64,000 nucleotides of DNA from Torpedo marmorata (Eukaryota). The notes below the pieces were generated by a model, which had not been told where the DNA came from, ran no database searches, and saw nothing but the letters and a program-made list of their open reading frames with translations. Location: contig CDRNVU010000372.1 of the NCBI GenBank assembly GCA_977017645.1, forward strand, positions 1-64,000, written 5' to 3'. The translations under genes and the position numbers were made by a program. Below, in pieces: positions 1 through 42,034 of the stretch; position 1 is the first letter of the stretch, and each line of letters begins with the position of its first letter.

Positions 1-3000
1 CTCACCTACCACCTTAAATGATCCCACTCACCTACCACCTTAAATGATCCCACTCACCTACCCCCTCACATGATCCCACTCGCCTACCCCCTCACATGAT
101 CCCACTCACCTACCCCCTCACATGATCCCACTCGCCTACCCCCTTAAATGATCCCACTCACCTACCCCCTGACATGATCCCACTCACCTACCCCTTAAAT
201 GATCCCACTCACCTACCCCCTGACATGATCCCACTCACCTACCCCCTGACATGATCCCACTCACCTACCCCCTTAAATGATCCCACTCACCTACCCCCTG
301 ACATGATCCCACTCACCTACCACCTTAAATGATCCCACTCACCTACCACCTTAAATGATCCCACTCACCTACCCCCTCACATGATCCCACTCGCCTACCC
401 CCTGACATGATCCCACTCACCTACCCCCTGACATGATCCCACTCACCTACCCCCTGACATGATCCCACTCACCTACCACCTTATATGATCCCACTCACCT
501 ACTCCCTGACATGATCCCACTCACCTACCCCCTGACATGATCCCACTTACCTACCACCTTACATGATCCCACTCACCTACCCCCTGACATGATCCCACTT
601 ACCTACCCCCTGACATGATCCCACTCACCTACCCCCTGACATGATCCCACTTACCTACCCCCTGACATGATCCCACTCACCTACCCCCTGACATGATCCC
701 ACTCACCTTCCCCCTGACATGATCCCACTCACCTACCCCTGACATGATCCCACTCACCTACACCCTTAAATGATCCCACTCACCTACCCCCTGACATGAT
801 CCCACTCACCTACCCCCTGACATGATCCCACTCACCTACCCCCTGACATGATCCCACTCACCTACCCCCTGACATGATTCCACTCACCTACCCCCTTAAA
901 TGATCCCACTCACCTACCCCCTGACATGATCCCACTCACCTACCCCCTGACATGATCCCACTCACCTACCCCCTGACATGATCCCACTCACCTACCCCCT
1001 TAAATGATCCCACTCACCTACCCCCTGACATGATCCCACTCACCTACCCCCTGGCATGATCCCACTCGCCTACCCCCTGACATGATCCCACTCGCCTACC
1101 CCCTGACATGATCCCACTCACCTACCCCCGGACATGATCCCACTCGCCTACCCCCTGACATGATCCCACTCACCTACCCCCTGACATGATCCCACTCACC
1201 TACCCCCTGACATGATCCCACTCACCTACCCCCTGACATGATCCCACTCACCTACCCCCTTAAATGATCCCACTCACCTACCCCCTGACATGATCCCATC
1301 ACCTACCCACTTAAATGATCCCACTCACCTAGCCCCTGACATGATCCCACTCACCTACCCCCTGACATGATCCCATCACCTACCCACTTAAATGATCCCA
1401 CTCACCTACCCCCTGACATGATCCCACTCACCTACCCCCTTAAATGATCCCACTCACCTACCCCCTGACATGATCCCATCACCTACCCCCTGACATGATC
1501 CCACTCACCTACCCCCTTAAATGATCCCACTCACCTACCCCCTTAAATGATCCCACTCACCTACCCCCTGACATGATCCCATCACCTACCCCCTTAAATG
1601 ATCCCACTCACCTACCCCCTGACATGATCCCACTCACCTACCCCCTGACACGATCCCACTCACCTACCCCCTGACATGATCCCACTCACCTACCCCCTGA
1701 CATGATCCCACTCACCTACCCCCTGACATGATCCCACTCACCTACCCCCTGACATGATCCCACTCACCTACCCCCTGACATGATCCCACTCACCTACCAC
1801 CTGACATGATCCCACTCACCTACCCCCTGACATGATCCCACTCACCTACCACCTGACATGATCCCACTCACCTACCCCCTGACATGATCCCACTCACCTA
1901 CCCCCTGACATGATCCCACTCACCTACCCCCTGACATGATCCCACTCACCTACCACCTGACATGATCCCACTCACCTACCCCCTGACATGATCCCACTCA
2001 CCTACCCCCTGACATGATCCCACTCACCTACCACCTGACATGATCCCACTCACCTACCCCCTGACACGATCCCACTCACCTACCACCTGACATGATCCCA
2101 CTCACCTACCACCTGACATGATCCCACTCACCTACCCCCTGACATGATCCCACTCACCTACCCCATGACATGATCCCACTCACCTACCCCCTGACATGAT
2201 CCCACTCACCTATCCCCTGACATGATCCCACTCACCTACCCCCTTACATGATCCCACTCACCTACCCCCTGACATGATCCCACTCACCTACCCCCTGACA
2301 TGATCCCATCACCTACCCCCTTAAATGATCCCACTCACCTACCCCCTGACATGATCCCATCACCTACCCCCTTAAATGATCCCACTCACCTACCACCTTA
2401 CATGATCCCACTCACCTACCCCCTGACATGATCCCACTCACCTACCCCCTGACATGATCCCACTTACCTACCCCCTTAAATGATCCCACTCACCTACCCC
2501 CTGACATGATCCCACTCACCTACCCCCTGACATGACCCCACTCACCTACCCCCTGACATAATCCCACTCACCTACCCCCTGACTTGATCCCATCACCTAC
2601 CCCCTTAAATGATCCCACTCACCTACCCCCTGACATGATCCCACTCACCTACCACCTGACATGATCCCACTCACCTACCCCCTGACATGATCCCACTCAC
2701 CTACCCACTGACATGATCCCACTCACCTACCCCCTGACATGATCCCACTCACCTACCCCCTTAAATGATCCCACTCACCTACCCCCTGACATGATCCCAC
2801 TCACCTACCCCCTTACATGATCCCACTCACCTACCACCTTAAATGATCCCACTCACCTACCCCCTGACATGATCCCACTCACCTACCACCTTAAATGATC
2901 CCACTCACCTACCACCTTAAATGATCCCACTCACCTACCCCCTTACATGATCCCACTCACCTACCCCCTTACATGATCCCACTCACCTACCCCCTGACAT

Positions 3001-6000
3001 GATACCACTCACCTACCCCCTGACATGATCCCACTCACCTACCACCTTAAATGATCCCACTCACCTACCCCCTTACATGATCCCACTCACCTACCCCCTT
3101 ACATGATCCCACTCACCTACCCTCTGACACGATCCTACTCACCTACCCCCTGACATGATCCCACTCACCTACCACCTTAAATGATCCCACTCACCTACCC
3201 CCTGACATGATCCCACTCACCTACCACCTTAAATGATCCCACTTACCTACCCTCTTACATGATCCCACTCACCTACCACCTTAAATGATCCCACTCCCCT
3301 ACCACCTTAAATGATCCCACTCACCTACCCCCTCACATGATCCCACTCACCTACCCCCTTACATGATCCCACTCACCTACCCCCTGACATGATCCCACTC
3401 ACCTACCCCCTTAAATGATCCCACTCACCTACCCCCTGACATGATCCCACTCACCTACCCCCTTAAATGATCCCACTCACCTACCACCTGACATGATCCC
3501 ACTCACCTACCACCTTAAATGATCCCACTCACCTACCCCCTTACATGATCCCATCACCTACCACCTTACATGATCCCACTCACCTACCACCTTAAATGAT
3601 CCCACTCACCTACCCCCTTACATGATCCCATCACCTACCCCCTGACATGATCCCACTCACCTACCCCCTGACATGATCCCATCACCTACCCCCTTAAATG
3701 ATCCCACTCACCTACCCCCTGACATGATCCCACTCACCTACCCCCTGACATGATCCCACTCACCTACCACCTTAAATGATCCCACTCACCTACCCCCTGA
3801 CATGATCCTACTCACCTACCACATGACATGATCCCACTCACCTACCACCTGACATGATCCCACTCACCTACCCCCTGACATGATCCCACTCACCTACCCC
3901 CTGACATGATCCCACTCACCTACCCCCTGACATGATCCCACTCACCTACCCCTTGACATGATCCCACTCACCTACCCCCTTACATGATCCCACTCACCTA
4001 CCCCCTGACATGATCCCACTCACCTACCCCCTGACATGATCCCACTCACCTACCCCCTGACATGATCCCACTCACCTACCCCCTTACATGATCCCACTCA
4101 CCTACCACCTTAAATGATCCCACTCACCTACCACGTTAAATGATCCCACTCACCTACCCCCTCACATGATTCCACTCACCTACCCCCTCACCTGATCCCA
4201 CTCACCTACCCCCTGACATGATCCCACTCACCTACCCCCTGACATGATCCCACTCACCTACCCCCTTAAATGATCCCACTCACCTACGCCCTGACATGAT
4301 CCCACTCACCTACCCCCTGACATGATCCCACTCACCTACCCCCTGACATGATCCCACTCACCTACCCCCTTAAATGATCCCACTCACCTACCCCCTGACA
4401 TGATCCCACTCACCTACCCCCTGACATGATCCCACTCACCTACCCCCTTACATGATCCCACTCACCTACCCCCTGACATGATCCCACTCACCTACCCCCT
4501 AACATGATCCCACTCACCTACCCCCTGACATGATCCCACTCACCTACCCCCTGACATGATCCCACTCACCTACCACCTGACATGATCCCACTCACCTACC
4601 CCCTTAAATGATCCCACTCACCTACCCCCTGACATGATCCCACTCACCTACCCCCTGACATGATCCCACTCACCTACCCCCTTACATGATCCCACTCACC
4701 TACCCCCTTAAATGATCCCACTCACCTACCCCCTTAAATGATCCCACTCACCTACCCCCTGACATGATCCCACTCACCTACCCCCTTAAATGATCCCACT
4801 CACCTACCCCCTGACATGATCCCACTCACCTACCCCCTGACATGATCCCACTCACCTACCCCCTGACATGATCCCACTCACCTACCCCCTGACATGATCC
4901 CACTCACCTACCCCCTGACATGATCCCACTCACCTACCCCCTTAAATGATCCCACTCACCTACCCCCTTAAATGATCCCACTCACCTACCCCCTGACATG
5001 ATCCCACTCACCTACCCCCTTAAATGATCCCACTCACCTACCCCCTGACATGATCCCACTCACCTACCACCTGACATGATCCCACTCACCTACCCCCTGA
5101 CATGATCCCACTCACCTACCCCCTGACATGATCCCACTCACCTACCACCTGACATGATCCCACTCACCTACCCCCTGACATGATCCCACTCACCTACCAC
5201 CTGACATGATCCCACTCACCTACCCCCTGACATGATCCCACTCACCTACCCCCTTACATGATCCCACTCACCTACCCCCTGACATGATCCCACTCACCTA
5301 CCCCCTGACATGATCCCACTCACCTACCCCCTGACATGATCCCACTCACCTACCCCCTGACATGATCCCACTCACCTACCCCCTGACATGATCCCACTCA
5401 CCTACCACCTGACATGATCCCACTCACCTACCCCCTTACATGATCCCACTCACCTACCCCCTGACATGATCCCACTCACCTACCCCCTTACATGATCCCA
5501 CTGACCTACCCCGACATGATCCCACTCACCTACCCCCTTACATGATCCCACTCACCTACCCCCTGACATGATCCCACTCACCTACCCCCTTAAATGATCC
5601 CACTCACCTACCCCCTGACATGATCCCACTCACCTACCCCCTTAAATGATCCCACTCACCTACCCCCTGACATGATCCCACTCACCTATCCCCTGACATG
5701 ATCCCACTCACCTACCACCTTACATGATCCCACTCACCTACCACCTTAAATGATCCCACTCACCTACCACCTTAAATGATCCCACTCACCTACCCCCTGA
5801 CATGATCCCTCTCACCTACCCCCTGACATGATCCCACTCACCTACCCCCTGACATGATCCCACTCACCTACCACCTTAAATGATCCCACTCACCTACCCC
5901 CTTACATGATCCTACTCACCTACCCCCTGACATGATCCCACTCACCTACCCTCTGACACGATCCTACTCACCTACCCCCTGACATGATCCCACTCACCTA

Positions 6001-9000
6001 CCACCTTAAATGATCCCACTCACCTACCCCCTGACATGATCCCACTCACCTACCACCTTAAATGATCCCACTTACCTACCCTCTTACATGATCCCACTCA
6101 CCTATCACCTTAAATGATCCCACTCCCCTACCACCTTAAATGATCCCACTCACCTACCCCCTCACATGATCCCACTCACCTACCCCCTTACATGATCCCA
6201 CTCACCTACCCCCTGACATGATCCCACTTAACTACCCCCTTAAATGATCCCACTCACCTACCACCTGACATGATCCCACTCACCTACCACCTTAAATGAT
6301 CCCACTCACCTACCCCCTTACATGATCCCATCACCTACCACCTTACATGATCCCACTCACCTACCACCTTAAATGATCCCACTCAGCTACCCCCTTACAT
6401 GATCCCATCACCTACCCCCTGACATGATCCCACTCACCTACCCCCTGACATGATCCCATCACCTACCCCCTTAAATGATCCCACTCACCTACCCCCTGAC
6501 ATGATCCCACTCACCTACCCCCTGACATGATCCCACTCACCTACCACCTTAAATGATCCCACTCACCTACCCCCTGACATGATCCTACTCACCTACCACA
6601 TGACATGATCCCACTCACCTACCCCCTGACATGATCCCACTCACCTACCCCCTGACATGATCCCACTCACCTACCCCCTGACATGATCCCACTCACCTAC
6701 CCCTTGACATGATCCCACTCACCTACCCCCTGACATGATCCCACTCACCTACCCCCTGACATGATCCCACACACCTACCCCCTGACATGATCCCACTCAC
6801 CTACCCCCTGACATGATCCCACTCACCTACCCCCTGACATGATCCCACTCACCTACCCCTTGACATGATCCCACTCACCTACCCCCTTACATGATCCCAC
6901 TCACCTACCCCCTGACATGATCCCACTCACCTACCCCCTGACATGATCCCACTCACCTACCCCCTGACATGATCCCACTCACCTACCCCCTGACATGATC
7001 CCACTCACCTACCCCTTGACATGATCCCACTCACCTACCCCCTTACATGATCCCACTCACCTACCCCCTGACATGATCCCACTCACCTACCCCCTGACAT
7101 GATCCCACTCACCTACCCCCTGACATGATCCCACTCACCTACCCCCTTACATGATCCCACTCACCTGCCACCTTAAATGATCCCACTCACCTACCACCTT
7201 AAATGATCCCACTCACCTACCCCCTCACATGATTCCACTCACCTACCCCCTCACCTGATCCCACTCACCTACCCCCTGACATGATCCCACTCACCTACCC
7301 CCTGACATGATCCCACTCACCTACCCCCTTAAATGATCCCACTCACCTACCCCCTGACATGATCCCACTCACCTACCCCCTGACATGATCCCACTCACCT
7401 ACCCCCTGACATGATCCCACTCACCTACCCCCTGACATGATCCCACTCACCTACCCCCTGACATGATCCCACTCACCTACCCCCTTAAATGATCCCACTC
7501 ACCTACCCCCTGACATGATCCCACTCACCTACCCCCTGACATGATCCCACTCACCTACCCCCTTACATGATCCCACTCACCTACCCCCTGACATGATCCC
7601 ACTCACCTACCCCCTTAAATGATCCCACTCACCTACCCCCTTAAATGATCCCACTCACCTATCCCCTGACATGATCCCACTCACCCACCCCCTGACATGA
7701 TCCCACTCACCTACCCCCTGACATGATCCCACTCACCTACCCCCTTAAATGATCCCACTCACCTACCCCCTTAAATGATCCCACTCACCTACCCCCTGAC
7801 ATGATCCCACTCACCTACCCCCTGACATGATCCCACTCACCTACCCCCTGACATGATCCCACTCACCTACCCCCTGACATGATCCCACTCACCTACCCCC
7901 TGACATGATCCCACTCACCTACCCCCTGACATGATCCCACTCACCTACCCCCTTAAATGATCCCACTCACCTACCCCCTGACATGATCCCACTCACCTAC
8001 CCCCTGACATGATCCCACTCACCTACCACCTTAAATGATCCCACTCACCTACCCCCTGACATGATCCCACTCACCTACCCCCTGACATGATCCCACTCAC
8101 CTACCCCCTGACATGATCCCACTCACCTACCCACTGACATGATCCCACTCACCTACCACCTGACATGATCCCACTCACCTACCCCCTGACATGATCCCAC
8201 TCACCTACCCCCTTAAATGATCCCACTCACCTACCCCCTGACATGATCCCACTCACCTACCCCCTGACATGATCCCACTCACCTACCCCCTTAAATGATC
8301 CCACTCACCTACCCCCTGACATGATCCCACTCACCTACCCCCTGACATGATCCCACTCACCTACCCCCTGACATGATCCCACTCACCTACCCCCTTAAAT
8401 GATCCCACTCACCTACCCCCTTAAATGATCCCACTCACCTACCCCCTGACATGATCCCACTCACCTACCCCCTGACATGATCCCACTCACCTACCCCCTT
8501 ACATGATCCCACTCACCTACCCCCTGACATGATCCCACTCACCTACCCCCTTAAATGATCCCACTCACCTACCCCCTTAAATGATCCCACTCACCTACCC
8601 CCTGACATGATCCCACTCACCTACCCCCTTAAATGATCCCACTCACCTACCCCCTGAGATGATCCCACTCACCTACCACCTGACATGATCCCACTCACCT
8701 ACCCCCTGACACGATCCCACTCACCTACCCCCTGAGATGATCCCACTCACCTACCACCTGACATGATCCCACTCACCTACCCCCTGACATGATCCCACTC
8801 ACCTACCCCCTGACATGATCCCACTCACCTACCCCCTGACATGATCCCACTCACCTACCCCCTTACATGATCCCACTCACCTACCCTTACATGATCCCAC
8901 TCACCTACCCCCTGACATGATCCCACTCACCTACCCCCTGACATGATCCCACTCACCTACCACCTGACATGATCCCACTCACCTACCCCCTTACATGATC

Positions 9001-10605
9001 CCACTCACCTACCCCCTGACATGATCCCACTCACCTACCCCCTTACATGATCCCACTGACCTACCCCGACATGATCCCACTCACCTACCCCCTGACATGA
9101 TCCCACTCACCTACCCCCTGACATGATCCCACTCACCTACCCCCTTACATGATCCCACTCACCTACCCCCTGACATGATCCCACTCACCTACCCCCTTAA
9201 ATGATCCCACTCACCTACCGCCTGACATGATCCCACTCACCTACCCCCTTAAATGATCCCACTCACCTACCCCCTTACATGATCCCACTCACCTACCCCC
9301 TTACATGATCCCACTCACCTACCCCCTGACATGATCCCACTCACCTACCCCTGACATGATCCCACTCACCTACCACCTGACATGATCCCACTCACCTACC
9401 CCCTTACATGATCCCACTCACCTACCCCCTGACATGATCCCACTCACCTACCCCCTTACATGATCCCACTGACCTACCCCGACATGATCCCACTCACCTA
9501 CCCCGACATGATCCCACTCACCTACCCCCTTACATGATCCCACTCACCTACCCCCTGACATGATCCCACTCACCTACCCCCTTAAATGATCCCACTCACC
9601 TACCCCCTGACATGATCCCACTCACCTACCCCCTTAAATGATCCCACTCACCTACCCCCTTAAATGATCCCACTCACCTACCCCCTTACATGATCCCACT
9701 CACCTACCCCCTGACATGATCCCACTCACCTACCCCCTTAAATGATCCCACTCACCTACCCCCTGACATGATCCCACTCACCTACCCCCTTAAATGATCC
9801 CACTCACCTACCCCCTGACATGATCCCACTCACCTACCCCCTGACATGATCCCACTCACCTACCCACTTACATGATCCCACTCACCTACCCCCTGACATG
9901 ATCCCACTCACCTACCACCTTAAATGATCCCACTCACCTACCACCTTAAATGATCCCACTCACCTACCACCTTAAATGATCCCACTCACCTACCCCCTGA
10001 CATGATCCCTCTCACCTACCCCCTGACATGATCCCACTCACCTACCCCCTGACATGATCCCACTCACCTACCCCCTGACATGATCCCACTCACCTACCCC
10101 CTGACATGATCCCACTCACCTACCACCTGACATGATCCCACTCACCTACCCCCTTAAATGATCCCACTCACCTACCCCGACATGATTCCACTCACCTACC
10201 CCCTGACATGATCCCACTCACCTACCCCCTGACATGATCCCACTCACCTACCCCCTGACATGATCCCACTCACCTACCACCTGACATGATCCCACTCACC
10301 TACCACCTGACATGATCCCACTCACCTACCCCCTTACATGATCCCACTCACCTACCCCCTTACATGATCCCACTCACCTACCCTCTGACATGATCCCACT
10401 CACCTACCACCTTAAATGATCCCACTCACCTACCCCCTTAAATGATCCCACTCACCTACCACCTTAAATGATCCCACTCACCTACCCCCTTAAATGATCC
10501 CACTCACCTACCACCTTAAATGATCCCACTCACCTACCCCCTTAAACGATCCCACTCACCTACCACCTTAAATGATCCCACTCACCTACCCCCTGACATG
10601 ATCCC
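1..10605. repeat. 26-bp tandem satellite/minisatellite, about 400 units, consensus GATCCCACTCACCTACCCCCTGACAT (variant ending CCACCTTAAAT); runs off the left edge
   Basis: ctcacctacc recurs at 1, 27, 53 (period 26); continuous to atccc at 10605; strong C-rich/G-rich strand asymmetry. Confidence 0.99.
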
Positions 10606-10679
10606 TTTGCCACAGGTGCTCTGAGATTACGAAAGGATTACTTAAGGTGGTGAGTGGGGAAAAAGGTTGAGAGCCACTG
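10601..10679. mobile_element. Remaining half of a hAT/Charlie-like MITE whose other arm is replaced by the satellite
   Basis: atccctttgccacaggtgctctgagattacgaaaggattacttaaggtgg...gagccactg matches the reverse complement of the MITE at 10790-10921; followed by ctctggac, resembling the Charlie nTCTAGAn target. Confidence 0.8.
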
Positions 10680-10789
10680 CTCTGGACCTCATTGTTACTG
10701 AAATATTTTGCTTGAGAAAAATTGTCATTGGCCCATTTCTTTTGCAGTTATCAAACTGCACCTAACGAGTCAATTGGGTACGATTAAAA

Positions 10790-10921
10790 CAGTGTTTTTC
10801 AAACTTTTTCTTTCCACTCACATATCACCTTAAGTAATCCCTTACTAATGACAGAGCACCTATGGCATAGGGATTACTTAAGGCGGTATGTGAGCAGAAA
10901 GAAAAAGTTTGAAAACCACTG
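10790..10921. mobile_element. Palindromic 132-bp MITE, hAT/Charlie-like ends
   Basis: cagtgtttttcaaactttttctttccactcacatatcaccttaagtaatccct ... agggattacttaaggcggtatgtgagcagaaagaaaaagtttgaaaaccactg form about 50-bp inverted arms; no clear TSD. Confidence 0.8.
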
Positions 10922-10986
10922 CTCAACCTCCTGTACTATCCATAAATGCCAAAGGACCTCACCTGGGACCCGGCCCGGATAACGTT

Positions 10987-11200
10987 CTTTTTCAATCTTT
11001 TTATTGATTTTATTTTAAAAAATCAATAAATGAAGAAAAGGGAACTAAATTGAAAATACAATATCACATATTAAAATAAAACTTCAAACGGTATAAATTT
11101 GATCCCCCCTCCACTGCAATAGGTGACAATGACAAAAATCCATCAAAAGTGTTATAGATATATAAATTTTAAAAACCTAACCTACTCCAATAAAAAAAAA
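10987..11200 (-). mobile_element. Short L1-like 3' UTR/poly(A) tail fragment
   Basis: T-rich start with ttttattg (AATAAA on the minus strand), AT-rich like the other L1 tails here. Confidence 0.45.
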
Positions 11201-11468: not shown

Positions 11469-14400
11469 TTTTTTTTTTTATTTTTTATAATTTTATTTAG
11501 TTTTTAAAATCACAAAATACATAATCAAAAATAGTATATTATTCAAAATACATGTGATACATTTACCACCCCCCCTCCCTCCCTCCCCAACCCTCCCACA
11601 CTATTCTAATAAAGAAAAAAAAAAAAGAAAAATAAGAATATATAAAAATGTTAATTAAAAGAAAAGAAATAGAATGAGAAATAAAGTTAAGAGAGTTAGT
11701 ATGAGGAGAAAACTATTTCAAACTAACTCTATTTATATATTGGAGGTTACTTTTGTCAGCGGTACTAACTTTTAGAGAATTAATTCATACCCATAATTCT
11801 CATGTATGGGCTCCAAATTTTCAAAAAGAAATGATATTTGTCTCGTAAGTTATACGTAATTTTTTCCAGTGGTATACAAGAACGTAACTCTGCATGTAAT
11901 CTATCTAAATTCAAATCTAAGTCTGATTTCCAAGTAATAGCAATACATTTTTTTGAAATTGCTAACACGATTCGTAAAAATTCTATTTGATACATATTTA
12001 ATCTATTTCTAATACTAATTTTTTTAATATCTCCAAACAAAAATATCATAGGATCCATTGGAATCGTAATATTAAAAATTCTATCTAAAAAATCTTTAAC
12101 TTTAGACCAAAAATTTTTAATTTTCAAACATGACCATGTACAATGTACAAAAGAACCTATTTCATCTTTACATCTAAAACACATATCTGACAATGCCGGA
12201 TTGAATTTCTTTAATTTTTTGGGTGTTATATATAATTGATGAAAAAAGTTATACTGTACTAATCTATATCTAACATTAATAATCTTAGTCATACTCAATT
12301 TACACAATTCTTTCCAATGTTGTTCATCTATACTAATATTTAGATCTGATTCCCAATTTAATCTAGATTTATGCAGTCCTACTTTAGGTATCTTTTTCTG
12401 AAATAATTTATACATTTGCGATATAAATTTATTAACATTTCCATTAGTAATTAATAACTCTAACCCATCCTGTCTAGGAGATATTAATTGATTCCCTAAT
12501 TTCTCAACTAAAAATCATTTAACTTGATAATAAGCCAAAATTGTATTATGCATTATTCCAAATTTTTCTTTCAATCTAGAAAAAGTAACAAATTTTCCTG
12601 CCTCAAAACAATCTTTAATCTTCTTAATTCCTTTTTGATACCATAATTTTAAAAATTGATTATCCATAGAAAATGGTAGTAATAAATTCTGATATAATGG
12701 CATATTTAAAGAAATTGATCCTTTTCGCCCTATTTCATTATCTAATTGATTCCAAATCTCTAATAAATGTCTAATAATCGGTGACTTTTTCTTTTTAATC
12801 AATAATAATTTAGAATTCCATTTATAAATAATATCTTCCTTATTTCTTTCTCCTATATTACTTAATTCTATATTAATCCAAGCCGTATTTTTAGTTAAAT
12901 CAAATAGTTCATTTATAAATTTTAATTGTGCTGCCTTATAATAATATTGAAAATTAGGAAGTTGTAATCCACCCATTTCATATTCCCAAGTTAATTTATC
13001 CATACTTACTCTTGCCAATTTTCCTTTCCATAAAAACTTTCTAATAATATTTTTTAAATCTTTAAAAATTTTTTGAGGAATACCAAAAGGTATAGATTGA
13101 AAAAGATATTGAACTCTTGGAAAAATATTCATTTTAATACAATTCACTCTTCCCATTAAAGTTATAGGTAAATCTTTCCAATTATCCAAATCTTTCTTTA
13201 TTTTCTGAAATAAAGGTATGTAGTTTAATTTATATAAATTTTCTAACTTTGTATCCACTTTAACTCCCAAATATTTAATAGCTTCTTTAGCCCATTTAAA
13301 TTTTGTAACTTCTTTACATTTAGTATAGTCTCCTTGAGATAAAGCCATTATCTCACTTTTATCCGAATTTATTTTATATCCAGATATTTCACCATAATCC
13401 CTCAATATTTTATCTAATTGTTGAAGTGATTCAATAGACTTTGTCATATATATTAATACATCATCTGCAAACAAACTAATTTTATGCTCTTCTGCACCTA
13501 CTTTTATCCCATTTATATTCATATCTTTCCTAATCATTTCCGCCAACGGTTCTATTGCCAATACAAATAAAGCAGGTGACAATGGACATCCTTGTCTTGT
13601 TGACCGTGTCAAAGAAAATTTAGATGATATTTGACCATTTGTAATTACTTTAGCTGTAGGTTCCTTATATATAGTTTTAATCCAATTTATAAACGTGTTT
13701 CCAAATCCATATTTCTCTAAAACCTTAAATAAAAACTTCCACTCTAATCTATCAAATGCTTTTTCTGCATCTAATGCTATCACTAACGGTAAATCCTGTT
13801 TCTTTTTTTGTAAATTAATCAAACTTATTAATCTTGCTATATTATCCTTTGAATATCTATTTTTAATAAATCCTGCTTGATCTGGATGTATTAAAAATGG
13901 TAAAAACTTAGCTAATCTATTTGTCAAGATTTTTGCCATTAATTTATAGTCTACATTTAACAATGATATAGGTCTATACGATTCAGTTTTCAATACATCT
14001 CTATCCTTCTTTGGTATAACTGTAATAACAGCATTTAAAAATGTTTTCGGTAATAACTGAGTTTCCTTTATTTGAGTCAATACTTCCATATATATAGGTA
14101 TCAATAAATCTTTAAACTTCTTATAAAACTCTACCGGAAATCCATCATCACCAGGAGATTTACCACTATTCAATGATGATAGAGCCTCACCTACTTCTCT
14201 CATTGTAATTGGTAAATCTAACAAATCTCTATTAAAACTATTTAGTTTGGGCAATGTAATTTTAGATAAAAAATCATCAATTTTTACAACATCTTGACTC
14301 ATTTGTGAAGTATATAAATTTTGATAATATTCTTTAAATGAATTATTTATTTCTTGAGGTTTATAAGTTATTTCTCCATTACTTTTCTTTATAGCATTTA

Positions 14401-15583
14401 TAGTTTTGGAAACTTGTTCTTTCTTTAATTGCCATGCTAAAACTTTATGTGCTCTTTCTCCCAATTCATAATATCTTTGCTTTGTTCTACCAATTAATTT
14501 TTCTATTTTTCGAGTTTGTAATATATTATAATGTAATTTTTTCCCCATTAAACATTGTCTCTTAAAAATTGTTTTATTTCTTTGAAAATCTTTTTCCATA
14601 ACTTCAATCTCCCCCTCCAGTTTTTCTTCTTCTTTCAAGTAATCTTTTCTGATTTTTGCCGAGAAGCTTATTATCAATCCTCTTAAATATGCTTTTAAAG
14701 ATTCCCAAATTATAAACTTATCATCAACTGAATTGTTATTAATTCTTAAAAATTCCTGAATTTCTTTTCTTATATATTCACAGAAATCTTTTCTATTTAA
14801 TAAAGAAGAATCTAATCTCCAATTATATACAGTTTTTTCTTTCTCTGGAATTATACATGTCATTAATAACGGTGAATGGTCCGAAATTATTCTTGCTTTA
14901 TAAGAAATTTGAGTTATTCTATCTTGAATTTGTGAAGATATTAAAAATAAGTCAATCCTCGAGAATGAATTATGTCGAAAGGAATAAAATGAATAATCCT
15001 TTTCTCTAGGGTTTAACTTTCTCCAAATATCTACTAAATTTAAATCATCCATTAAATTAATAATTCTTTTAACTATTTTAGGTCTAACAGATGTTCTAGA
15101 TGTTTTATCCATATTTGCATTAAGACAACAATTAAAATCTCCCCCAATTAAAATATTTTCCTTAGCTTCAGATAAATGTAAAAAAGTATCTTGAATAAAT
15201 TGTTCATCCTCTGGGTTTATAATATATAAATTTTAAAAGGTCCATGTTTCTGAATAAATTTGACAATGCACCATAACAAATCTACCAGCTATATCCGTCA
15301 CTACTGATTGTATTTTAAATGGTAATTTTTTATTGATTAAAATCGCTACTCCTCTCGCTTTAGAATTAAAAGATGAAGCTACTACATGTCCTACCCATTC
15401 TCTCTTCAACTTTTGATGTTCTTTATCAGTCAAATGTGTTTCCTGTAAAAAAGCTATGTCTACTTTTAATTTTTTAATATATGCCAAAGTTTTTTTCCTT
15501 TTAATTGGATTATTAAGCCCATTAACATTAATACTTACAAAATTAATACTTCTAGAATCAACCATAATTAAATTTTGAACATT
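11469..15583 (-). mobile_element. 5'-truncated L1 LINE with complete but disrupted ORF2; 11-bp TSD taccttttcct (11458-11468 / 15584-15594)
   Basis: APE (SINVNGL, FLQETH, SDH), RT (YRPISLLN, DAEKAFD, QGCPLSP, LFADD), C-terminal CFRC...H..WSC; poly(A) tail at the left end. Confidence 0.96.
11780..15565 (-). pseudogene. L1 ORF2 (endonuclease + reverse transcriptase) in three pieces: 15233-15565, 12515-15112, 11780-12415
   Basis: ORF track; frame breaks near 15230 and 12515. Confidence 0.93.
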
Positions 15584-15594
15584 TACCTTTTCCT

Positions 15595-15974
15595 CTTTAT
15601 CCCTTTGTTTTCTTCTGTCCGTCTACCCATTCACACTCCGCCTTCAACGTTTCCCAATTCTTGGACTTTCCATCAACCGCACATACCCCGACCCCTTTCT
15701 GACTTGCATCATCCCTCCAACTGGCCGACATCCACTGTTGTGCCTTCTTTTTCCATTGTGTGATTAGACATTTCCACTCAGGGCCATTCCCTTTCCTCCA
15801 TGTTGTCTGGGTTGCATGATCACAGGCTTCCATATCCCACATTCCCCCCCACTGGTCAAATCTCTTCCCCTAATCGCGTGGTCAGCTGCACACATAATTG
15901 TCTTAATTCTTTCGGAAATTTCAGAAATTCATCACCGGTGAATCTTTCCCTAATTTATCCAGAATTTGCCCCAT
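15595..15974 (-). pseudogene. gag: ERV gag N-terminus (matrix-like), decayed
   Basis: ATG at 15974 gives MGQILDKLGKDSPV (Gly2 myristoylation-type start); later LGEEI*PVGGMWD resembles the class I matrix WPxxG motif; stops and frameshifts present. Confidence 0.7.
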
Positions 15975-17683: not shown

Positions 17684-18260
17684 GACACCTGAGATGTCCT
17701 CCCTTCTTCAGAAAAGGTGGCTTCCCCTCTATTCAGCTCTCAGCAGCAAAAGGGCTCAGGCCCAAAATGTTTGTAGCCTTTTACTTCATTCTGTGTGACC
17801 TTCTGCAGAAGGCGGCATTAAGCAAAAAGAGAAAAAACTGCAAAGGAACATGTGTTGTCAGAGTCGAAAAGCTACTCAGCTCTGCGTGAGCACCCAGTGC
17901 TAGCATATACATCAAGATGACGAAGGAATGAATAACTTAGCTTCAATCTTGCTTGTGTTCAGTATTCACTCTCTGCTGCACTTTATTTAGACACACCCAC
18001 TGATATATACATCACATCCTATCACATGCCAGTTTAAGGGAATCCTATTGGCTGTCATCAATGTCTATAACAGAAACACCTGAATGGATACATAACATTA
18101 GGTTTGCCTCTGTGACAACAATAAATAAACATTTTGTACAATTGAGGGCATATTTCCCCACATGTTAACACCCCCACTTGCACTCACATTGTTACCTTTT
18201 CAAATCAAAAACACAATAAGGTTCTCTACCTTACATTATGTGAATCTCACTTTTACATAC

Positions 18261-21200
18261 TTAATCTCCAAACATAAATCTGGCAAACTTTGACAACTTA
18301 AACTTCGTTGCAGGTTTTTTTCATCACATCTGCTACCATCTGATCTGTTGGACAATATGCTAGACTTATTTTTCCAATGTTTACACTTCATCTTATAAAA
18401 TGATATTTTATGTCAATGTGCTTACATCTCTGTCGACTTACTGGGTTTTTAGCCAAAGCTATTGTCCCCTGGTTATCTTCATAAACCTTGGGTAGTGGGT
18501 ACTGGCATTTGTCCATACCTTCTAGCAGTTGTGTTAAATGCATACACTCCTGTATGGTTGCAGCTAAAGACATATACTCTGCCTCGCAGGTAGAAAGGGC
18601 AACAGTTGGCTGCTTTTTAGTTTTCCAAGATATTAAAGGACCATTGTCTTTTAGGCTTACACAATACCCAGATGTACTACGTCTATCAGTGATGTCAGCA
18701 GCCCAGTCTGCATCACTGTATGCATGTAGTCCCAGATTGTCCTTATCACATTTCCTGTAACACAATTCTTTGTCACTTGTACCTTTCAGATATCTTAGAA
18801 CGTGTTTAACAGTCATCCACTGTTCTTCTGTTGGTTCAGAGAAATACTGCGATAGTTTGCTTACAACAAAACTTAAATCGGGTCTGGTGCATGTATTCAA
18901 ATAGATTAAGCTGCCTACAGATTCTCTGTATCTTCTGGTATCACTTATCTTTTCTGAATCATCAGAGTAGTTCAACTTCTGCTCACAAGGTGTCACTCTA
19001 GGTTTACAGTCTTTCATGTGAAACCTCTCAAGTATTTTTTTAACATATTTCTCTTGTGACATTTTTACAGATCCATCGCTTTGTTCAAAATCAATGCCAA
19101 GAAAATGTTTCAGTTTTCCCAAGTCTTTCATTTTGAACTTGGCTGTCAACATTTCTTCACCACTCTCAGTGCATTTTCATCACTTGCAGCAATGATTACA
19201 TCATCAACCCAAATTATCATGATCACTTTTTCATTTTCTGTTTCTTTTGTGTATACACAATGATCAGCCGGGTTCTGCACAAAGTTGTTGTCATTCAGAT
19301 AGTCATGTAAAGTCTTGTTCCAGTTTCTGCCAGACTGTTTCAATCCGTACAATGACTTCTCTAGTTTATACACCACTTTTTCAGTTGTGTTGGTTTTCAC
19401 CTCATATCCCTCTGGTTGTTCCAGGTAGATTTCACAGTCTATTGGTGCATGTAGATATGCAGTTTTCACGTCCATCTGATGTAGAATCAGGTTTTCCTGT
19501 GCTGCTTTCTGCATCAGGACTCTGATGCTAGTCAGGTTAGCAGTAGGTGAGAAAGTCTCATCATAGTCCACACCCTCTTTCTGACTGTATCCTTTTGCAA
19601 CATATCTTGCTTTGTACCTGTTAGATCCATCAACATTGTTTTTAAGAGCATACACCCATCTTCCCCCACTGCCTTCTTACCCTCAGGCAGGTTGGTTAAG
19701 GTAAATGTATTATTTTCTCTCAATTGAGTGCATCTCTTCATCCATAGCATTAACCCATTCTTTTGAGTTAGGGGATGTTACAGCATCTGTAAATGTTAGC
19801 GGTACATCACACATTATTCTGTAACAGTAATCAATGTTCATGAGCACCTGATCATCACTCTCTTCTAACACATAATCACTCAGATAACCTGGTTTCTTTC
19901 TCTCTCTGGAAGGGTACCTCCTGTGCTCATGTTTTGTCTCATTTGGTTGTGTTTGATTGTCCTCATCAGGCTTAGCTGCCTGTGACTGGCCCTGACTTTG
20001 TTCTGGACTCACATCAGTATTTTGCCTGGTGTTATAAACACTTCTTGGCACTTCAAAGTCACAATTATCAGGAGACATGTCTGTCTGTGTCTCTTGTTCA
20101 ACATTGTCTTTGGTCACAAATGTAACCAGTCTGTGCTTCTGCACTTTTCCACTGTAAGGATAATAAATCATGTAGGCTGGGCTGTTCTTATCGTACCCCA
20201 CAAAGATACCCCTTTCACACCTTGAATCCAGTTTTCTTTTATCTTGTTTATAGGCGTAACACTCCAACCCAAATCTTTGCATCCTGGAGAGGTTAGGCCT
20301 TCGTCCTGTCAGTAGGAAGTATGGTGTCTGCTTTGTACGGTTGCTAAAACACCTGTTCCTTATTACAGCTGCTGTCTGCACTGCATAAGTCCATAGGTCT
20401 TTTGATAACTCGCTGTCTATAAGCATACACCTCGCCATGTCAAAGAGTGTGCGCCAGTTTCGTTCTGCCGTACCGTTCTGGTGTGGTGAGTATGGCGCTG
20501 AGGTTTCATGTCTGATCCCATTTTTTCTCAGTAGTGTCTGGTAAGCTTTTCCCATAAACTCTGCACCGTTGTCAGATCTAATGCATTTTATTTTACCATA
20601 TGGTGCTGTATCAGCAAAAAAACTTCTCTGTTGCCTGCACTGTGTCACTCTTTTGTTTTAAAAAATACACAAACACTGCACTGGAAAAATCATCAGTGAA
20701 TGATCATGCAAACCTATAGCCATTTCTAGACTCTGGATGTATCGGCCCTGCTATATCTGTGTGTACTAGCTCTAAAGCTGCTTTGGCTCTTACATCAGGG
20801 TCTCTGTTCCTTGTCTGTATAAACTTTCCCTGAATGCACACTTTACAAAATGGAGCAGGTTTGTTTGACTTACCCTTAATAGTCATACCATCAACAACAC
20901 CCTGTAATTTCTGGACATCATCATAGTTGCAATGCCCTAGGATCTCATGCCATTGCTGTATGTCATAGCACCCCTTACATTTATCATCACATTCAACATT
21001 TTTAGTTTGCAAGTAATATAATCCGTTATTCATGTGAATGTTAAACTTCGTACCGTCTCTGTGTATGTGGTAAACCACTTTATATGTGTTGTGGGCTAGG
21101 GATAGGTTTGGACATGCCCTGCTGACTGTCCCAGTGACTCCTCCCACAATCCCCTTGAATAAAGGCCATTGTGCCACAACTCCTCCCCCAGTCCGGGACA

Positions 21201-22510
21201 GATCAGCAGCTCGAATGTAGCACCATTCTATAACCAATAAAAGCCTTTCAGTTCATATACAACTTCCAGTCTTTTGGGAGTCATTGATAGGTGTATCAGT
21301 GTATGAGGACATCTCGGCCCTTTCTGAAGATCACAGTTGCTCCACTTGTAGTAGCTGCTTTCACAGAAAACATATCCTGTGAATATGATGGGACAAACAA
21401 AGCTTTTCTCAGCGTCGTGGTGTGCTGCTGCCCTCTGCTGTCGATCAAGCACACCTCTGCATCTCCTCGGCGCTCTGCGACTCCTCTGCATCTCGTGCCA
21501 TCAGCCAACTCCACGAAGTGTGTCTGGGGCTGGAAATCATCATCAAAGTTTTTAAACTTTGCAATATCCGTGACGATATGCAAAGTTGCTCCGGAATCCA
21601 CCATCAGTCCCTTGTCGTCGATACTGCGCCCTGGCTGGAATGTCCGACCTTCATCACTCGCCCGGAAGGTGTACTCAGTGTCACTCACCTCCTCCAAAAA
21701 CTTTTTCGCGTTGGCTTGCCGCTGTCTCCGTCTGCACGTTGAATCCCGATGTGTGGTGCTTTTACACAAGCTACACCATTGTTTGCGTCGATAGTCTCTG
21801 GCTTTATGCCCCTTTAGTCCACATTTAAAACACACCATGTAAGTGCTGTCGGCTCCACGGTCACTTCTACTTACTGAAGTTGGTAAACCGCGCGCTTTCA
21901 TTACATTGTCATCAGATACTGCTGCGCGCATTTTCTCAGTGTCTTCATAGCTCCTGAGTTTTGTTTTAAAGTCAGCAAAACATATCTCCATTTCACTTTG
22001 TGTGACATGAATAGCAAATGGTTTGTATGACTCTGGCAGCCCTTTCAATATCATTGCTACTAGTAGTCCATCACTTAATTTTTCATCAGCTTTTCTCAAA
22101 GCTGTGATTATTGTCTCAGCACGAATAATGTACTCCGTCACACTTTCACTGCTCGACTTTTGTAATGAAGACAGTTCTGTGTACAAGCCGATAACACGTG
22201 GCTTACCTTTGCCAGCATAATAGTCTCTTAAAATCTGCAGTGCTTTCCGTCCATCGTCGGCAGCGTCTCGCATAACCAGCGACAAACTTTTATCGTCCAG
22301 GAACTGTATTAGCTCTGCGTAGGCCTCGGCATTTTTCTCCTCATCTTCGGCTTCCTCATCAGAGGTCGGCTCATTTAAAATAGTATTTTTAAGCTTAACC
22401 AGTCGAAGATGGCCCAAAAACTTTGTCTCCCAAAGTTCATAGTTTTTCTCGTCTCCGTCAAAGACTAGCCGTGACCAGCGGCCACTCGGCTCAGCGACCC
22501 GTTGGCTCAT
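18261..22510 (-). pseudogene. Copia gag-pol polyprotein, frameshifted
   Basis: CFKCGLKGH knuckle, DSGAT protease, WHEILGH/CKVC and SDNGAEF/QNGTAER integrase, KARYVAKGY/MDVKTAYL/LYGLKQS/WVDD RT, SDADWA/DNQG/KHIDIKYHFIR RNase H. Confidence 0.95.
21066..21298 (+). mobile_element. 233-bp solo LTR nested in Copia pol; 5-bp TSD GTGTA
   Basis: TG...CA ends, AATAAA near 21236, gtgta at 21061-21065 and 21299-21303; removal restores DVLIHRDGTK. Confidence 0.88.
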
Positions 22511-23329
22511 GGTGCTAGCATAGCATGCTAATTCTCACCGGACATGCTGTACGTTGCAACTTCTTCCTCGGCGATAAATGGCTGCACTCGTCTGGGTGAC
22601 TCTGGGCCCATAACCTGTTGTCAGAATCGAAAAGCTACTCAGCTCTGCGTGAGCACCCAGTGCTAGCATATACATCAAGATGACGAAGGAATGAATAACT
22701 TAGCGTCAATCTTGCTTGTGTTCAGTATTCACTCTCTGTGACACTTTATATAGACACACCCACTGATATATACATCACATCCTATCACATGCCAGTTTAA
22801 GGGAATCCTATTGGCTGTCATCAATGTCTATAACAAAAACACCCGAATGGATACTTAACATTAGGTTTGCCTCTGTGACAATAATAAATAAACATTTTGT
22901 ACAATTGAGGGCATATTTCCCCACATGTTAACAGTCTCCTCCGCTTCTCCTTCTCAGACGGGGGTGATCTTCCCGTCCTCTGGTGCCCTGCTCCAGTCCT
23001 CCGCTTCCCCGGAATCTGCAGCCCCTCGTGGCTGCTGCCGGTTAAAAGGCGCTGCCATCTTGGGCGCAGACCCCGCGGTCGCGGGATCTTAAATAAAACC
23101 ACCGTCGGCTCCTTTAACGGGCCGTTCAAAGCCCGTGCGGAACCGATGGCAGTCGACTGGGCGGCTGGACCCTGCGGGAGCGCCGGTTTGTGTGGCACAA
23201 TATCACTACCACATCTAACTCATCATTGCAGCAGAGTCCTAAGGCAACATTTCAGCATAAAAGGGAAGAACATTAATACTTACAACTGGTTTCTCTCCCC
23301 ACCTCTCCTCGGTCCACTGACTCAACCTG

Positions 23330-23745: not shown

Positions 23746-23918
23746 AGCAGTCGGGTGCACCAGGCAGGCAACACAGCCTTCGGGATTCTCACTACAGAGA
23801 ATAGTGTCTGTAAGAGCCGTAGGCTCATTAACTTACCTTTGCTGCGGCGCTCCGATGCCTCGTCGGGTTGTGGAGCGCTCGCGTTGTCTGTGGGCCGTCC
23901 TCGGCCCGTTCTGTGCTC

Positions 23919-24600
23919 TGCGCATGCGCTGGAGTGCCGACGGGCGCATGCGCAGTATGGAGTGACGTCATTGTGCGCGGTGTAGTTTGGGAAATGTAGT
24001 ATGCGCGGTGGAGGGTGCGCAGTGGTATAGGAGCGATGGGGAATGCGCGAATTAGAGAAAAGGAAAAGGAATAAGATGTAGGAGGGTGAGTGAGATCTCC
24101 ATATCTTTATTGACCATTTTATAACGTCTTATACATCGTTTCAGAACATTGAACTGGTTACTTTGTAGTTTGGAATTGTTTAAAGAATCATTTAAAGAAA
24201 CTCATCATACATCGTTTTCAAGAACTGTTTATATTAAAGTCATTGAAGATTACTGCAAGTCACGTGTGTAAATAAAGATTTTGAACATATTGGACTTTGT
24301 TGATAAATTAATTAAAACGCGTCAAAGACAAGTATCTCACTTAGCCTCCAGGTGACTATTGTTGGATCGAAGTCACCACAATATAGTCAATAAAGAGCTG
24401 GCTGTTTGGAACAGAAAATTGAAGGAAAGAAGATAGAATAATCTCTCTGTGCTTTGGACTGATATTTAAAATAAAATGGCGGCCATCTTGAAGATCCCTC
24501 GAGTTGGGGGCAGTTTGTAATCCACATCCATCTGCCATGAATAACAGCCAGAGAGGGATTTAAAGCTTCAAATCTTATAGAAAAGTGTCCTATAAATACG
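23919..24600 (+). promoter_or_regulatory. LTR promoter motifs: NRF1-like GCGCATGCGC x2, CRE TGACGTCA (23963), back-to-back YY1-like aaaatggcggccatcttg (24473), TATAAA (24591)
   Basis: Motif matches in a CpG-rich U3; same motifs in the 3' LTR; function untested. Confidence 0.45.
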
Positions 24601-24839
24601 TTGGAGAAACCATTTTTGGAAATTCAGTGATATTAATGATGGATGTTGTGGTTGAAACTCGTTTGTGGATTGCAGCACATTACAGTCATTTGAAGTGGTA
24701 GGCATAAGTCTGTGGACTCCTTCAGTGTATCTTTAGCAAGTAAGAACACAGATTGGAATTGCTGCCGCTGGTCCATTGGGGACTGTTGATTTGGCTAGTG
24801 TTGTGTATGCTTGAAGGAAAGAGGAACAAGACGAGTAAA

Positions 24840-27621
24840 ATGGCCGCAGCAGCCACTGATACAGCAGCTACTGATGTATCAGCAGCTGATGCAGCAACCG
24901 CTGATGTTGCTGTTGAGGACCAACGTATTGAAGACATGAAGGTTGCGGATATTAAAGAAGAATTGAAGCGACTGAAAAAGGACATAAGTGGAAATAAAAA
25001 GGTTCTTGTCGAAAGATTGAAGCTGGCAAAGGATGAAGAGACAGCTTCATTAGATGAACAAGAAGATAACTTGGAAATGGCTGAAATTGTGTCACCAAAT
25101 GATGAAGAAATTGAAGTGGTTGAAGATGCAAAGGATATACAATTTGAATTGGATAAAAAGGTAAGTATGAAGACAGCATATGAACTGCAGGACAAAATAC
25201 AAGCAAGTGACAGTGTCTCAAATGCTGAAAGCAGGAGAAGCAAAAGAAGTTCTGGTTCGAGCTCCAGAGTTTTTCGTTCTTCAAATTCTGCATCGTCACG
25301 TACAAAGATTGATGTTAAATTGGCTGCTCTTCTTGCACAACAAAAAACGCTTAAGAATAAACATATTTTAGAACAAGAGGAGGAGCAGCTAAGACAAGAG
25401 AAGGAGCAGCTAAAGCAGATAAAAGAACAGTAGGAGCTGAAAGCAAACATTGCTATTGCCAAGGCAGAAAAGAAACCAATAGAAGGCTCAATGGTATCTG
25501 GTGCTAGAAGTAAATTATCTAAAGTGTCTGATAATAAAAGGTCATATTTAAAAAAGGAGTCACAGGAAAAGAAACCAACCAAAAGGATAGATATTTTAGA
25601 ACCAAGGATACAAAACCTACATATACAAGGACAAACCTTTCAAGAGCATATTGGTATCGAGTCACATGTACCAATGGTAACATCTGAAAGCAAAGCTGCG
25701 GCTTGGGTTCGGTCGAACGAAGCAGCTTCTTTGTTATTTGAGTCAAGCATCAGAAATATGGAAGAAACTACACCAGTAAGGTTTCCAGATACATTGCATG
25801 CAACAAGAGACGGTGAACAGAGCAATGTATTGTCATCCAAGGAAAGACAAAATGAAATTGCTGCATCATTGTTTCAGTTACAGTCTCTCTCTTCTTTACC
25901 CAAGAAAGAGATACAAATTTTTGATGGTGATCCACTTCAATATCAATCATTTATGAGATCTTTCAAACGCAATATTGAAGATAAATGCCAAGATCGTGAT
26001 GAATGTCTTTATTATTTGGAAATGTTCACAAAGGGACATCCAAAATAACTAGTAAAGAGTTGTAAACAAATGTCTTCAAAAAGAGGATTAGACAAAGCTA
26101 AGGCTTTACTGGAACAATATTTTGGCAACAAGCATCGAATTGCTTTAGCTTATATGGATAAAGCTCTTAAATGGACATCAATAAAACAAAATGATGTAAA
26201 GGCTCTGCAAGAATATACTCTGTTTTTAAGAGGATGTTGTAATGCTATGGAAGAAATCGATAATATTCGTGAGCTTGAAGTGCATAGTAATATGCGAATC
26301 ATCTTAGAAAAATTACCTTACAAGTTATGGGATATATGGAGAAATTTGGCTTGTGATTTACAAGTAAATTACGGTCGAAAAATTACTTTAAAGGATTTGG
26401 TAAATTTTCTTGAACGACAGGTGTACGTTGAGACGGATCCACTATATGGAAATACCAGAGATAATTCAATGGGCAAAGATGTAAGGAAGTCTAACACACA
26501 GTCTAGTCCGAAATTAAAAAGGAGTACTTTTGCTACTAATGTGCAAGTTATAAGTAAAGAAAAGGACAAAGTAAATAAGGAAAAGGAAAGTTTGCCTAAT
26601 GAAAAGAGTTGTTTGTTCTGTAAAGGTGGACATGCTTTGGAAATGTGTTTACGATTGGAAAAGAAGGAACATAAGGAAAAGATCGCTTTCTTAAAGGAAA
26701 ATTGAATATGTTTTAGCTGTCTGTGTAAAGGACACATCAGTAAAAACTGCGAGAAGTGAATTAATTGTAACATGCAATTTGAAACATCCTAGAATTTTGC
26801 ATATTCATAACAGAAACAAGGAATTGGAAAAGGAGCAAACAGAAACAAAGGAAACAACAGAAAATAATGTTATAACCTCGGTTCAGACAAGTGGTCTTAC
26901 TGGGGCCGGTGTGAATAACTGCAAACTTTCGATAGTGCCTGTACAAGTCAAGACCAAGAAAGGGGATGCAATAGTAAAAACATATGCATTTCTAGACCCA
27001 GGCAGCACTGCATCTTTTTGCACGGAAGGACTAATGAATAAACTTAATATTCAAGGAAGAAGATCAAGAATTATGTTAAAAACCATGGGACAAGAAAAGG
27101 TTGTTGAGACTAACATTGTTTCAGGCTTAGAGGTTGCTGGATTGGATGACAAAAAAATATGTGATCTTCCAAGTGTATATACTCAGAAGACTATGCCTGT
27201 GAATGAAGGAAATATTCCTCATCAAAAGGATATCCATCATTTAGCTTATCTGTGGAAGGTTTATTTACCTGAAATTAATTCTGAGATAGAAATGCTGATT
27301 GGTTCAGATGTTCCAAAGGTTTTGGTACCAAAAGAAGTAATAGAGAGTAAAAGGAATGGACCTTATGCTGTTAAAACCATGCTTGGTTGGACAATCAATG
27401 GACCACTAGAAAGAAATAATGATATTGCTCAGGAACAATTAGCGATAAATATTAATAGAATTTCGGTTGTGAAAGTTGAAGAGTTAAGCGAAGAGCAAAA
27501 AACTGTGAATAAGAAAATCACTTTTGAAGAAAAGAAAACAGATCAATGTGAAAATAAATCAATAGTATTTAAAACAACATTGAAGGAATTTCGTCAGAAA
27601 TGGATGAAAGTGAAGTATTAG
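24840..27621 (+). pseudogene. BEL/Pao gag-protease with N-terminal SAP-like motif; in-frame stops
   Basis: MKVADIKEELKRLKKDISGNKKVLVERL (SAP-like); IFDGDPLQYQSF (DUF1759-like); CLFCKGGH..C and CFSCLCKGH..C knuckles; YAFLDPGSTASF protease; GPYAVKTMLGWTINGP; stops at 25431, 26046, 26703, 26757. Confidence 0.9.
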
Positions 27622-28565: not shown

Positions 28566-28599
28566 CGTTTTAACTCAGATTATGGAGATAAAAGAGCTT

Positions 28600-28790
28600 T
28601 AAAGAGACATTGTGATTATTATGGATAATTCAACTTCAAGAAACTCCTGGTTACTTGGAAAAATTATTGAGACTTTTCAAGACAAAGAGGACTTGTGCGT
28701 CAAGTGTGAATTAAAGCTAAGACTGGTTTTCTAAACAGACCTATTTAACAAGGTCTGTCTTTTGTTGGAGACAGAGGAACTTTGATAAAT
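28600..28790 (+). pseudogene. BEL/Pao integrase C-terminal remnant (DUF5641-like)
   Basis: VIIMDNSTSRNSWLLGKIIETFQD..GLVRQV..K.KTGFLNRPI. Confidence 0.75.
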
Positions 28791-41780: not shown

Positions 41781-42034
41781 TTCAGTGGTTGCCACAGGCG
41801 CTGTTTGACCTGGATCCACCACTGTGGGTGGGGACTGATGGGATTGTGCCAGAGTCCTCCTGTGTTGTCACCTTCTGTGAAACTAGTCGTTCAAATCTGA
41901 CAACTTCCTCACAGCAGTCCAAACAATCCTTCCCTTGGCATTCACCTTTGCTTCCTTCTTCCTTCCTTCGCTGTGTGACCAACTTTAATCTTTATTAATC
42001 TTGCTTTTTTAAAATACATTTCTTCTTTGGATCT

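Follow-up and report, generated by a model that had tools for sequence, protein, structure and literature searches.

To characterize the 64,000-nucleotide stretch of the Torpedo marmorata assembly GCA_977017645.1 that forms the start of contig CDRNVU010000372.1 (positions 1–64,000, forward strand; hereafter the window), we analyzed the long tandem array at its left edge and the small inverted-repeat elements next to it. Without a gap, and in phase, the array runs into the centre and right arm of element A, a small inverted-repeat element whose right end lies at position 10679; a related two-armed element in the opposite orientation (element B) follows at a short distance. The array is probably a long minisatellite that had its origin in the arm of a small, hAT-like element with inverted repeats and grew at this site. 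The features at this locus are the following:

1–10605, + strand: tandem array of 26-bp units, C-rich on this strand, read as the expanded inner part of the left arm of element A (Tandem Repeats Finder [TRF] and unit parse)
10578–10606, + strand: last unit, of the derived type, and the in-phase junction into the element centre (BLASTN, register test)
10607–10632, + strand: centre of element A, 26 bp, identical at 20 of 26 positions to the reverse complement of the B centre (register comparison)
10633–10679, + strand: surviving right arm and terminus of element A, 47 bp (BLASTN, alignment)
10680–10687, + strand: 8-bp flank of element A, candidate right target-site copy (flank inspection)
10680–10789, no strand: 110-bp spacer between the outward-facing ends of elements A and B
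10790–10921, − strand: element B, a 132-bp two-armed hairpin with 53-bp arms and a 26-bp centre, inverted relative to A, with hAT/Buster-like ends and no target-site duplication (TSD)

TRF assigned positions 1–10605 to an array with a period of 26, 409.0 copies, and 93% matches, in agreement with a preliminary description of the locus, which had reported an array of about 10.6 kb built from a 26-bp unit. Parsed from its right end, the array consists of 408 whole units of the 26-bp repeat plus 23 bp, with 62 distinct unit sequences; 386 of the 408 units are exactly 26 bp long, while 16 measure 25 bp and 6 measure 24 bp. The array is open at the left edge of the window, and both 10.6 kb and 408 units are lower bounds. 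Its GC content is approximately 55%, with a GC skew of approximately −0.76. The commonest unit type accounts for 176 of the 408 units and differs from the left arm of element B at 7 of 26 positions, and an arm-like variant differs from the same arm (10814–10839) at 4 of 26. For a single array of 10.6 kb or more that lies next to retroelement debris, "long minisatellite" is a safer term than satellite.

Only the right end of the array is visible in the window, and there it is joined in register to the remnant of element A, the array taking up the position of the A left arm. The register was set from the centre of element A alone, which matches the B centre at 20 of 26 positions, the next-best register reaching 13. 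With this register, the 28 bases upstream of the A centre match the B arms at 22 of 28 positions without a gap, whereas none of the other 51 phases and orientations of the common unit exceeds 14 of 28. BLASTN aligned positions 1–105 of element B to 10679–10581 (minus strand) with an identity of 77% and an E value of 1.4e-17. [quoted passage not shown]

The unit itself had been matched to a MITE arm through one of its variants. This match stands at 22/26 identity, and the control is empty at up to 7 mismatches: in 10922–64000, on both strands and with all 26 rotations, no 26-mer lies within 7 mismatches of the arm-like variant, and 7 lie within 8. The variant in question, however, makes up only 31 of the 408 units. 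Taken together, sequence comparison strongly supports a derivation of the unit from an arm of the A/B element family. The right arm of element A lacks 4 bp that are found in the array unit and in both B arms, with 2 bp more missing near the terminus. Because the unit carries these 4 bp, it was not copied from the surviving arm of A. The A terminus has C, not T, at position 7, and the terminus search pattern given in the preliminary description, with T at that position, differs from A there. A profile built from A and B recovered both known copies and no third copy in 10922–64000, and a scan for other short elements with similar ends returned six pairs, of which only B is convincing and none has a TSD. 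Six short sequence motifs had no match in open-access paper text, and the arm and two-unit patterns found 0 loci each in prokaryotic genomes, which is little informative for a vertebrate host. A search of 10300–11200 against Rfam gave eight matches, all far below the gathering scores (the best being MIR7996, 40 versus 119 bits), which we read as generic hairpin matches and set aside.

The relation between unit and arm could in principle run in the reverse direction, with an older repeat unit captured into the element arms, as proposed for miDNA4, and an array that predates the element. That a MITE may capture a repeat already present has been proposed in print (PMC12628747), but the segment here is an integral, single-copy part of the element, mirrored in both B arms and in the A right arm, and the array units differ from one another by a pairwise mean of 5.7%, far less than A differs from B (77% identity). 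We therefore regard capture as very improbable.

Element B is short and non-coding (132 bp, with no overlapping frame of at least 120 aa). Its 53-bp arms are 91% complementary, with 5 of 53 positions mismatched (9.4%), and fold into a hairpin with a predicted energy of −46 to −47 kcal/mol (z of about −14), a stability equalled by none of 200 shuffled sequences. Element B is MITE-like in structure, while formal MITE membership goes beyond the evidence of this one copy. The preliminary description had placed an intact inverted MITE copy 110 bp beyond A; the two arms, the inverted orientation, and the 110-bp gap were all recovered, but no TSD accompanies them, the 8-bp flanks matching at 1 of 8 positions. 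The spacer (10680–10789) has no significant BLASTN match elsewhere in the window. Comparison of the centres shows differences between A and B at 6 of 26 positions, and the two elements look like members of separate subfamilies. The right flank of B (10922–10929) is the exact reverse complement of 10664–10671 within the A terminus. The first 12.5 kb contain no further occurrence of this octamer, which may be left over from another family end beside B or may be a post hoc coincidence.

The proximity of the two elements raises the question of whether B took part in the origin of the array, either through an A–B stem-loop that started the duplication, as in the Xstir model of Hikosaka and Kawahara, which invokes two elements in close proximity (PMC12628747), or because A, spacer, and B moved as a composite through their outer ends. 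A distance of 110 bp separates the two family copies, no further copy occurs in the other 53 kb of the window, a composite move would leave B without a TSD, as observed, and the inner flank of B carries TA at its centre, as in the Buster consensus nnnTAnnn. On the other hand, the outer flank of B has no central TA, no unit carries B-specific sequence (a B-type hexamer occurs 0 times in the array), and the apparent subfamily difference between A and B does not favor a joint role. Local clustering followed by deletion of a flank would explain the same facts, and an involvement of B is distinctly improbable.

Analysis of the order of unit variants revealed how the array grew. Rare variants, 1-bp deletions included, reappear in the same order, offset by 107, 109, and 118 units, and delimit two copies of a large block:

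3005–5833, + strand: first copy of a block of about 2.8 kb (109 units) (variant order, alignment)
5834–9361, + strand: second block copy, later lengthened by smaller local duplications, with an approximate end (offset drift from 107–109 to 118 and 137 units)

In a frequency-weighted alignment, 3005–3963 and 5834–6714 scored 93.8, compared with a maximum of 16.1 among 20 shuffles; at the DNA level, the two segments show 877 matches and 4 mismatches, with gaps of three units in total. The collinearity extends to approximately 9360 (score of 25.6 versus a maximum of −1.5 in 300 shuffles). A test for block duplication based on the longest identical run was uninformative (9 units, compared with a shuffle mean of 6.95 and a maximum of 14). 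Smaller duplications of 1–3, 6, and 16 units are overlaid on the block duplication. Inside the array, a 6-unit triplication at 6689–7026 and a 16-unit duplication at 9053–9515 are marked by rare variants. A block of about 2.8 kb was thus duplicated in one step, which would require unequal exchange or long template switching besides slippage. The earlier proposal that slippage amplified a piece of the arm about 400-fold therefore holds for the arm origin of the unit and for the number of copies, which exceeds 400, and is incomplete as to mechanism. The block copies differ at 4 of 881 positions (0.45%), compared with 9.4% between the B arms, which suggests that array growth may be much younger than the insertion of B.

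The same recurrence bears on whether the array could be an assembly or sequencing artefact. Singletons make up 34 of the 62 unit types, and some of them may be read errors. However, rare variants that return in order at offsets of 107–118 units, with a few differences between the copies, argue against such an origin, and a collapsed or stuttered assembly would not produce an ordered variant path. We give this explanation next to no credence.

Variation among the units is found mostly at three diagnostic sites, 14, 18, and 20. Among the 386 full-length units, the states at these sites are ATA in 36 (the state of the arm), CTA in 50, CTC in 41, CGC in 216, and the recombinant AGC in 25, with 18 others. 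The combination of G at site 18 with A at site 20 occurs in 0 of 386 units, while each one-step intermediate is abundant, a pattern that fits a stepwise change from the arm state to the derived state. The change at site 14 is carried by 320 of the 386 units.

This prevalence of the site-14 change, together with its predicted structural effect, could indicate that DNA structure drove part of the growth, in addition to the events described above. The change gives a run of five G on the minus strand, with G-quadruplex potential, and a weaker pairing with the surviving arm, and derived units would then have out-amplified the founder. A G4Hunter-type score rises from 0.85 for the arm-like unit to 1.31–1.35 for the three derived types, compared with 0.46–0.62 for tandemised B arms; the predicted duplex energy with the surviving arm weakens along the path from −18.3 to −14.0 kcal/mol; and G-quadruplex-forming minisatellites can be unstable (PMC5491262). 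Against this, a strict four-tract pattern with loops of at most 7 nt had 0 matches in tandems of the five main unit types, whose loops are 9 nt long, and ViennaRNA with its quadruplex option predicted none in two test stretches. The instability of CEB1 and CEB25 variants required short loops of at most 3 nt (PMC5491262), and drift in a homogenising array yields a dominant derived variant without any driver. Such a structural contribution appears doubtful. A bolder form of the idea, on which we would place equally little weight, is that the locus keeps a whole satellite birth: the parent arm, an inverted neighbor that possibly triggered the first duplication, and an ordered mutation path in which one substitution, through less pairing with the arm and G-quadruplex potential, and not drift, licensed runaway expansion. 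If this were true, and if the same substitution marked the long but not the short arrays of the family, the locus would offer a natural test of why few duplications derived from transposable elements (TEs) become satellites.

Apart from any such driver, the distribution of variants along the array bears on where the array was born, through a stretch at its edge:

10396–10577, + strand: most arm-like stretch of the array, made up of seven junction-proximal units

The last 8 units differ from the arm at a mean of 4.88 positions, compared with 6.43 array-wide, which places them first among 401 sliding windows and also first among 51 non-overlapping ones. Array ends are reported to homogenise less than centres (PMC5615363), and the enrichment of arm-like units at this edge agrees with such weaker homogenisation. 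The enrichment gives modest support for a birth of the array inside copy A. We also considered whether conversion from the surviving arm could have regenerated the arm-like units, and rejected this: none of the 386 units has G at site 21, a single one has A at site 23 (at 2538, a long way from the junction), and the 4-bp-deleted form does not occur.

An import from elsewhere would account for part of the same evidence. The unit would then have been born from an arm of this MITE family at another site and have reached the locus by ectopic recombination with the A arm, or inside a mobile copy carrying a short array, before expanding here. Homology alone would give an in-phase junction, the last unit is of the derived type, and every unit departs from the B arms at sites 9, 21, and 23 (in 386, 386, and 385 of 386 units), so that the founder was already diverged; short arrays carried in elements and later expanded have been documented (PMC7004042; PMC12628747). 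The position of the most arm-like stretch at the junction speaks for growth in place (rank 1 of 51), although a recombination preference could also yield it, and no stray units or short arrays are present in the other 53 kb of the window. Overall, an import is unlikely.

Several observations weigh against a local birth and were considered together. The unit that touches the A centre is the common derived type, with 7 differences from the arm. The rank of the edge varies with window size, from 15 of 404 at 5 units through 1–2 at 7–12 units to 19 of 389 at 20 units, and the arm-like run largely alternates a two-unit motif, so that few independent events may underlie it. An imported array would also recombine preferentially at arm-like units, and the polarity is no clean separator of birth from import. 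The family copies available for comparison are two, A and B. The microhomology at the 26-bp period is 2 bp in the B left arm, or 3 bp by eye if the A arm is mirrored, compared with the 5–10 bp that figure in the Haber and Louis model (summary in PMC6947457); with so short a microhomology, help from the element hairpin is plausible. No TSD was found at B for any length from 2 to 12 bp. Element A shows one terminus within the window, and the far end of the array, where the second terminus and a TSD would lie, is outside it; birth at exactly this site is likely but unproven. An absent TSD at that end would not refute birth in place, because the neighboring B also has none.

On balance, growth of the array inside element A remains the reading that we favor, and it may be laid out as a series of steps. 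The starting point would have been a non-autonomous DNA transposon of about 125–130 bp with hAT/Buster-like ends, element A, at this locus, in whose left arm a 26-bp inner segment was duplicated in tandem. Initiation could have occurred by replication slippage or by repair on 2–3 bp of microhomology, probably aided by the strong hairpin of the element. The founder unit would have been of the arm-like type; three substitutions would then have arisen in order and spread, until the derived types dominated. Growth would have proceeded at several scales, through duplications of one or a few units and at least one unequal exchange that copied about 2.8 kb at once, and the edge beside the element centre, homogenised least, would have retained more arm-like units. 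We infer that the array most likely consists of neutral and unstable repeat DNA, in a region rich in retroelements.

With respect to the class of the parent element, comparison of its ends with listed terminal inverted repeats (TIRs) revealed a resemblance to hAT/Buster elements. By eye and without a chance control, the left and right ends of B match Buster1_NA1_HM at 13 and 12 of 16 positions, respectively, and the A end matches Buster2_NA1_NH at 11 of 16 (TIR letters from Table 1 of PMC4298943). For TIRs and TSDs, PMC12637253 supplied lengths but no letters to compare. Buster elements have 8-bp TSDs with the consensus nnnTAnnn (PMC3517528); no such TSD is found at B, and of the three visible flanks only the left one of B has a central TA. 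No hAT domain was found in the Pfam scan of 27 of the 47 long open reading frames of the window. The ends resemble those of hAT/Buster elements, while Buster membership is not established. Like the Buster-family hAT MITEs (PMC4298943; Mar in PMC3517528), the ends begin with CAG and agree with the listed TIRs at 11–13 of 16 positions; they differ in that the arms here reach 53 bp, most of the element, and in the missing TSD at B.

Several published systems resemble the array more closely in their history. Xstir, derived from the Xmix T2-MITE of Xenopus (Hikosaka and Kawahara 2004, as described in PMC12628747, PMC6004289, and PMC9659126), is likewise a vertebrate case in which an internal or arm segment of a MITE was amplified in tandem; it includes composite MITE-plus-array structures, and its model uses two close elements. 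Xmix, however, targets TTAA and is presumably of the Kolobok type, and Xstir is a large genome-wide family, whereas here the ends are hAT/Buster-like, the host is a ray, and one array is seen in the window. In Drosophila virilis, the TIR-220 arrays of Tetris (PMC4079207), a non-autonomous foldback DNA element, grew within its terminal inverted repeat, reach kilobase size while still joined to element parts, and have been attributed to unequal crossing-over; the Tetris arms already hold several 220-bp repeats, with arrays of up to 66 copies in that assembly, compared with a single 26-bp arm copy and more than 400 units here. The miDNA4 MITE satellite of Xenopus tropicalis (Scalvenzi and Pollet 2014, as described in PMC12628747 and PMC9659126) shares the expansion from monomer to array within a MITE and a microhomology-driven change in copy number, but it belongs to a Tc1/mariner MITE, its motif lies inside the element, and capture was proposed, whereas the unit here is part of a mirrored arm. 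Retrotransposons provide a parallel in Lathyrus, where 9 of 11 satellites derive from retrotransposon arrays (PMC7004042). Of the features that identify TE-derived repeats of the Xstir, Tetris, and miDNA4 kind, homology of the monomer to the element is present here, and the in-register join is present at the right end. Listings of the literature, mainly of open papers, contained no hAT-derived array, no case from a cartilaginous fish, and no description of this family; a published table of cases likewise includes neither of the first two.

Retroelement debris makes up most of the remaining window, and the Pfam scan of 27 frames revealed no host gene family. Two L1/Tx1-like long interspersed nuclear element (LINE) copies at 11481–15622 and 54197–59941 (minus strand) are 79% identical over 4.1 kb, and the first appears to end approximately 65 bp from element B (A-rich tract near 10987–11016, by eye). 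A Copia-type element at 17853–22933 has 318-bp terminal repeats with 96.9% identity and gag, integrase, and reverse transcriptase (RT) frames in pieces; the best named match of its frame, at rank 7, is from Amblyraja radiata. At 23809–24910 and 28989–30089, 1.1-kb direct repeats with 99.6% identity surround frames with a SAP domain and with sequence that looks gag-like or protease-like by eye. The 23809–30089 element has no RT match and is apparently a very young, pol-less long terminal repeat (LTR) element, to which a more diverged piece near 62881–63810 is related. Penelope-like frames and Gypsy-like RT frames occur in pieces at 42013–43313 and 51739–54200; the top 8 matches of one Penelope-like frame are all in cartilaginous fishes, the best being Mobula hypostoma at 67%. 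A third frame query matched mostly teleost and Xenopus proteins at approximately 55–61% identity and was not discriminating. After a 300-bp C/CT-rich tract (40961–41270) and in a CpG-rich patch, a 21-bp minisatellite of about 12 copies with CCAAT-box-like motifs lies at 41413–41652 and looks like a promoter-type repeat. A telomeric role is not supported: the window contains no tandem copies of the vertebrate telomere hexamer.

No function is indicated for the array, and the general phenomenon is well known. Arrays derived from MITEs or TIRs are already established by Xstir/Xmix, miDNA4, and Tetris, and the present array adds a clear new example. Most claims that a satellite arose from a transposon rest on similarity of consensus sequences, whereas in the present case array and parent remain connected in register. 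The unexpanded relative B, 110 bp away, serves as an outgroup, and the variants can be placed in order, making the origin, direction, and mode of growth of the array checkable.

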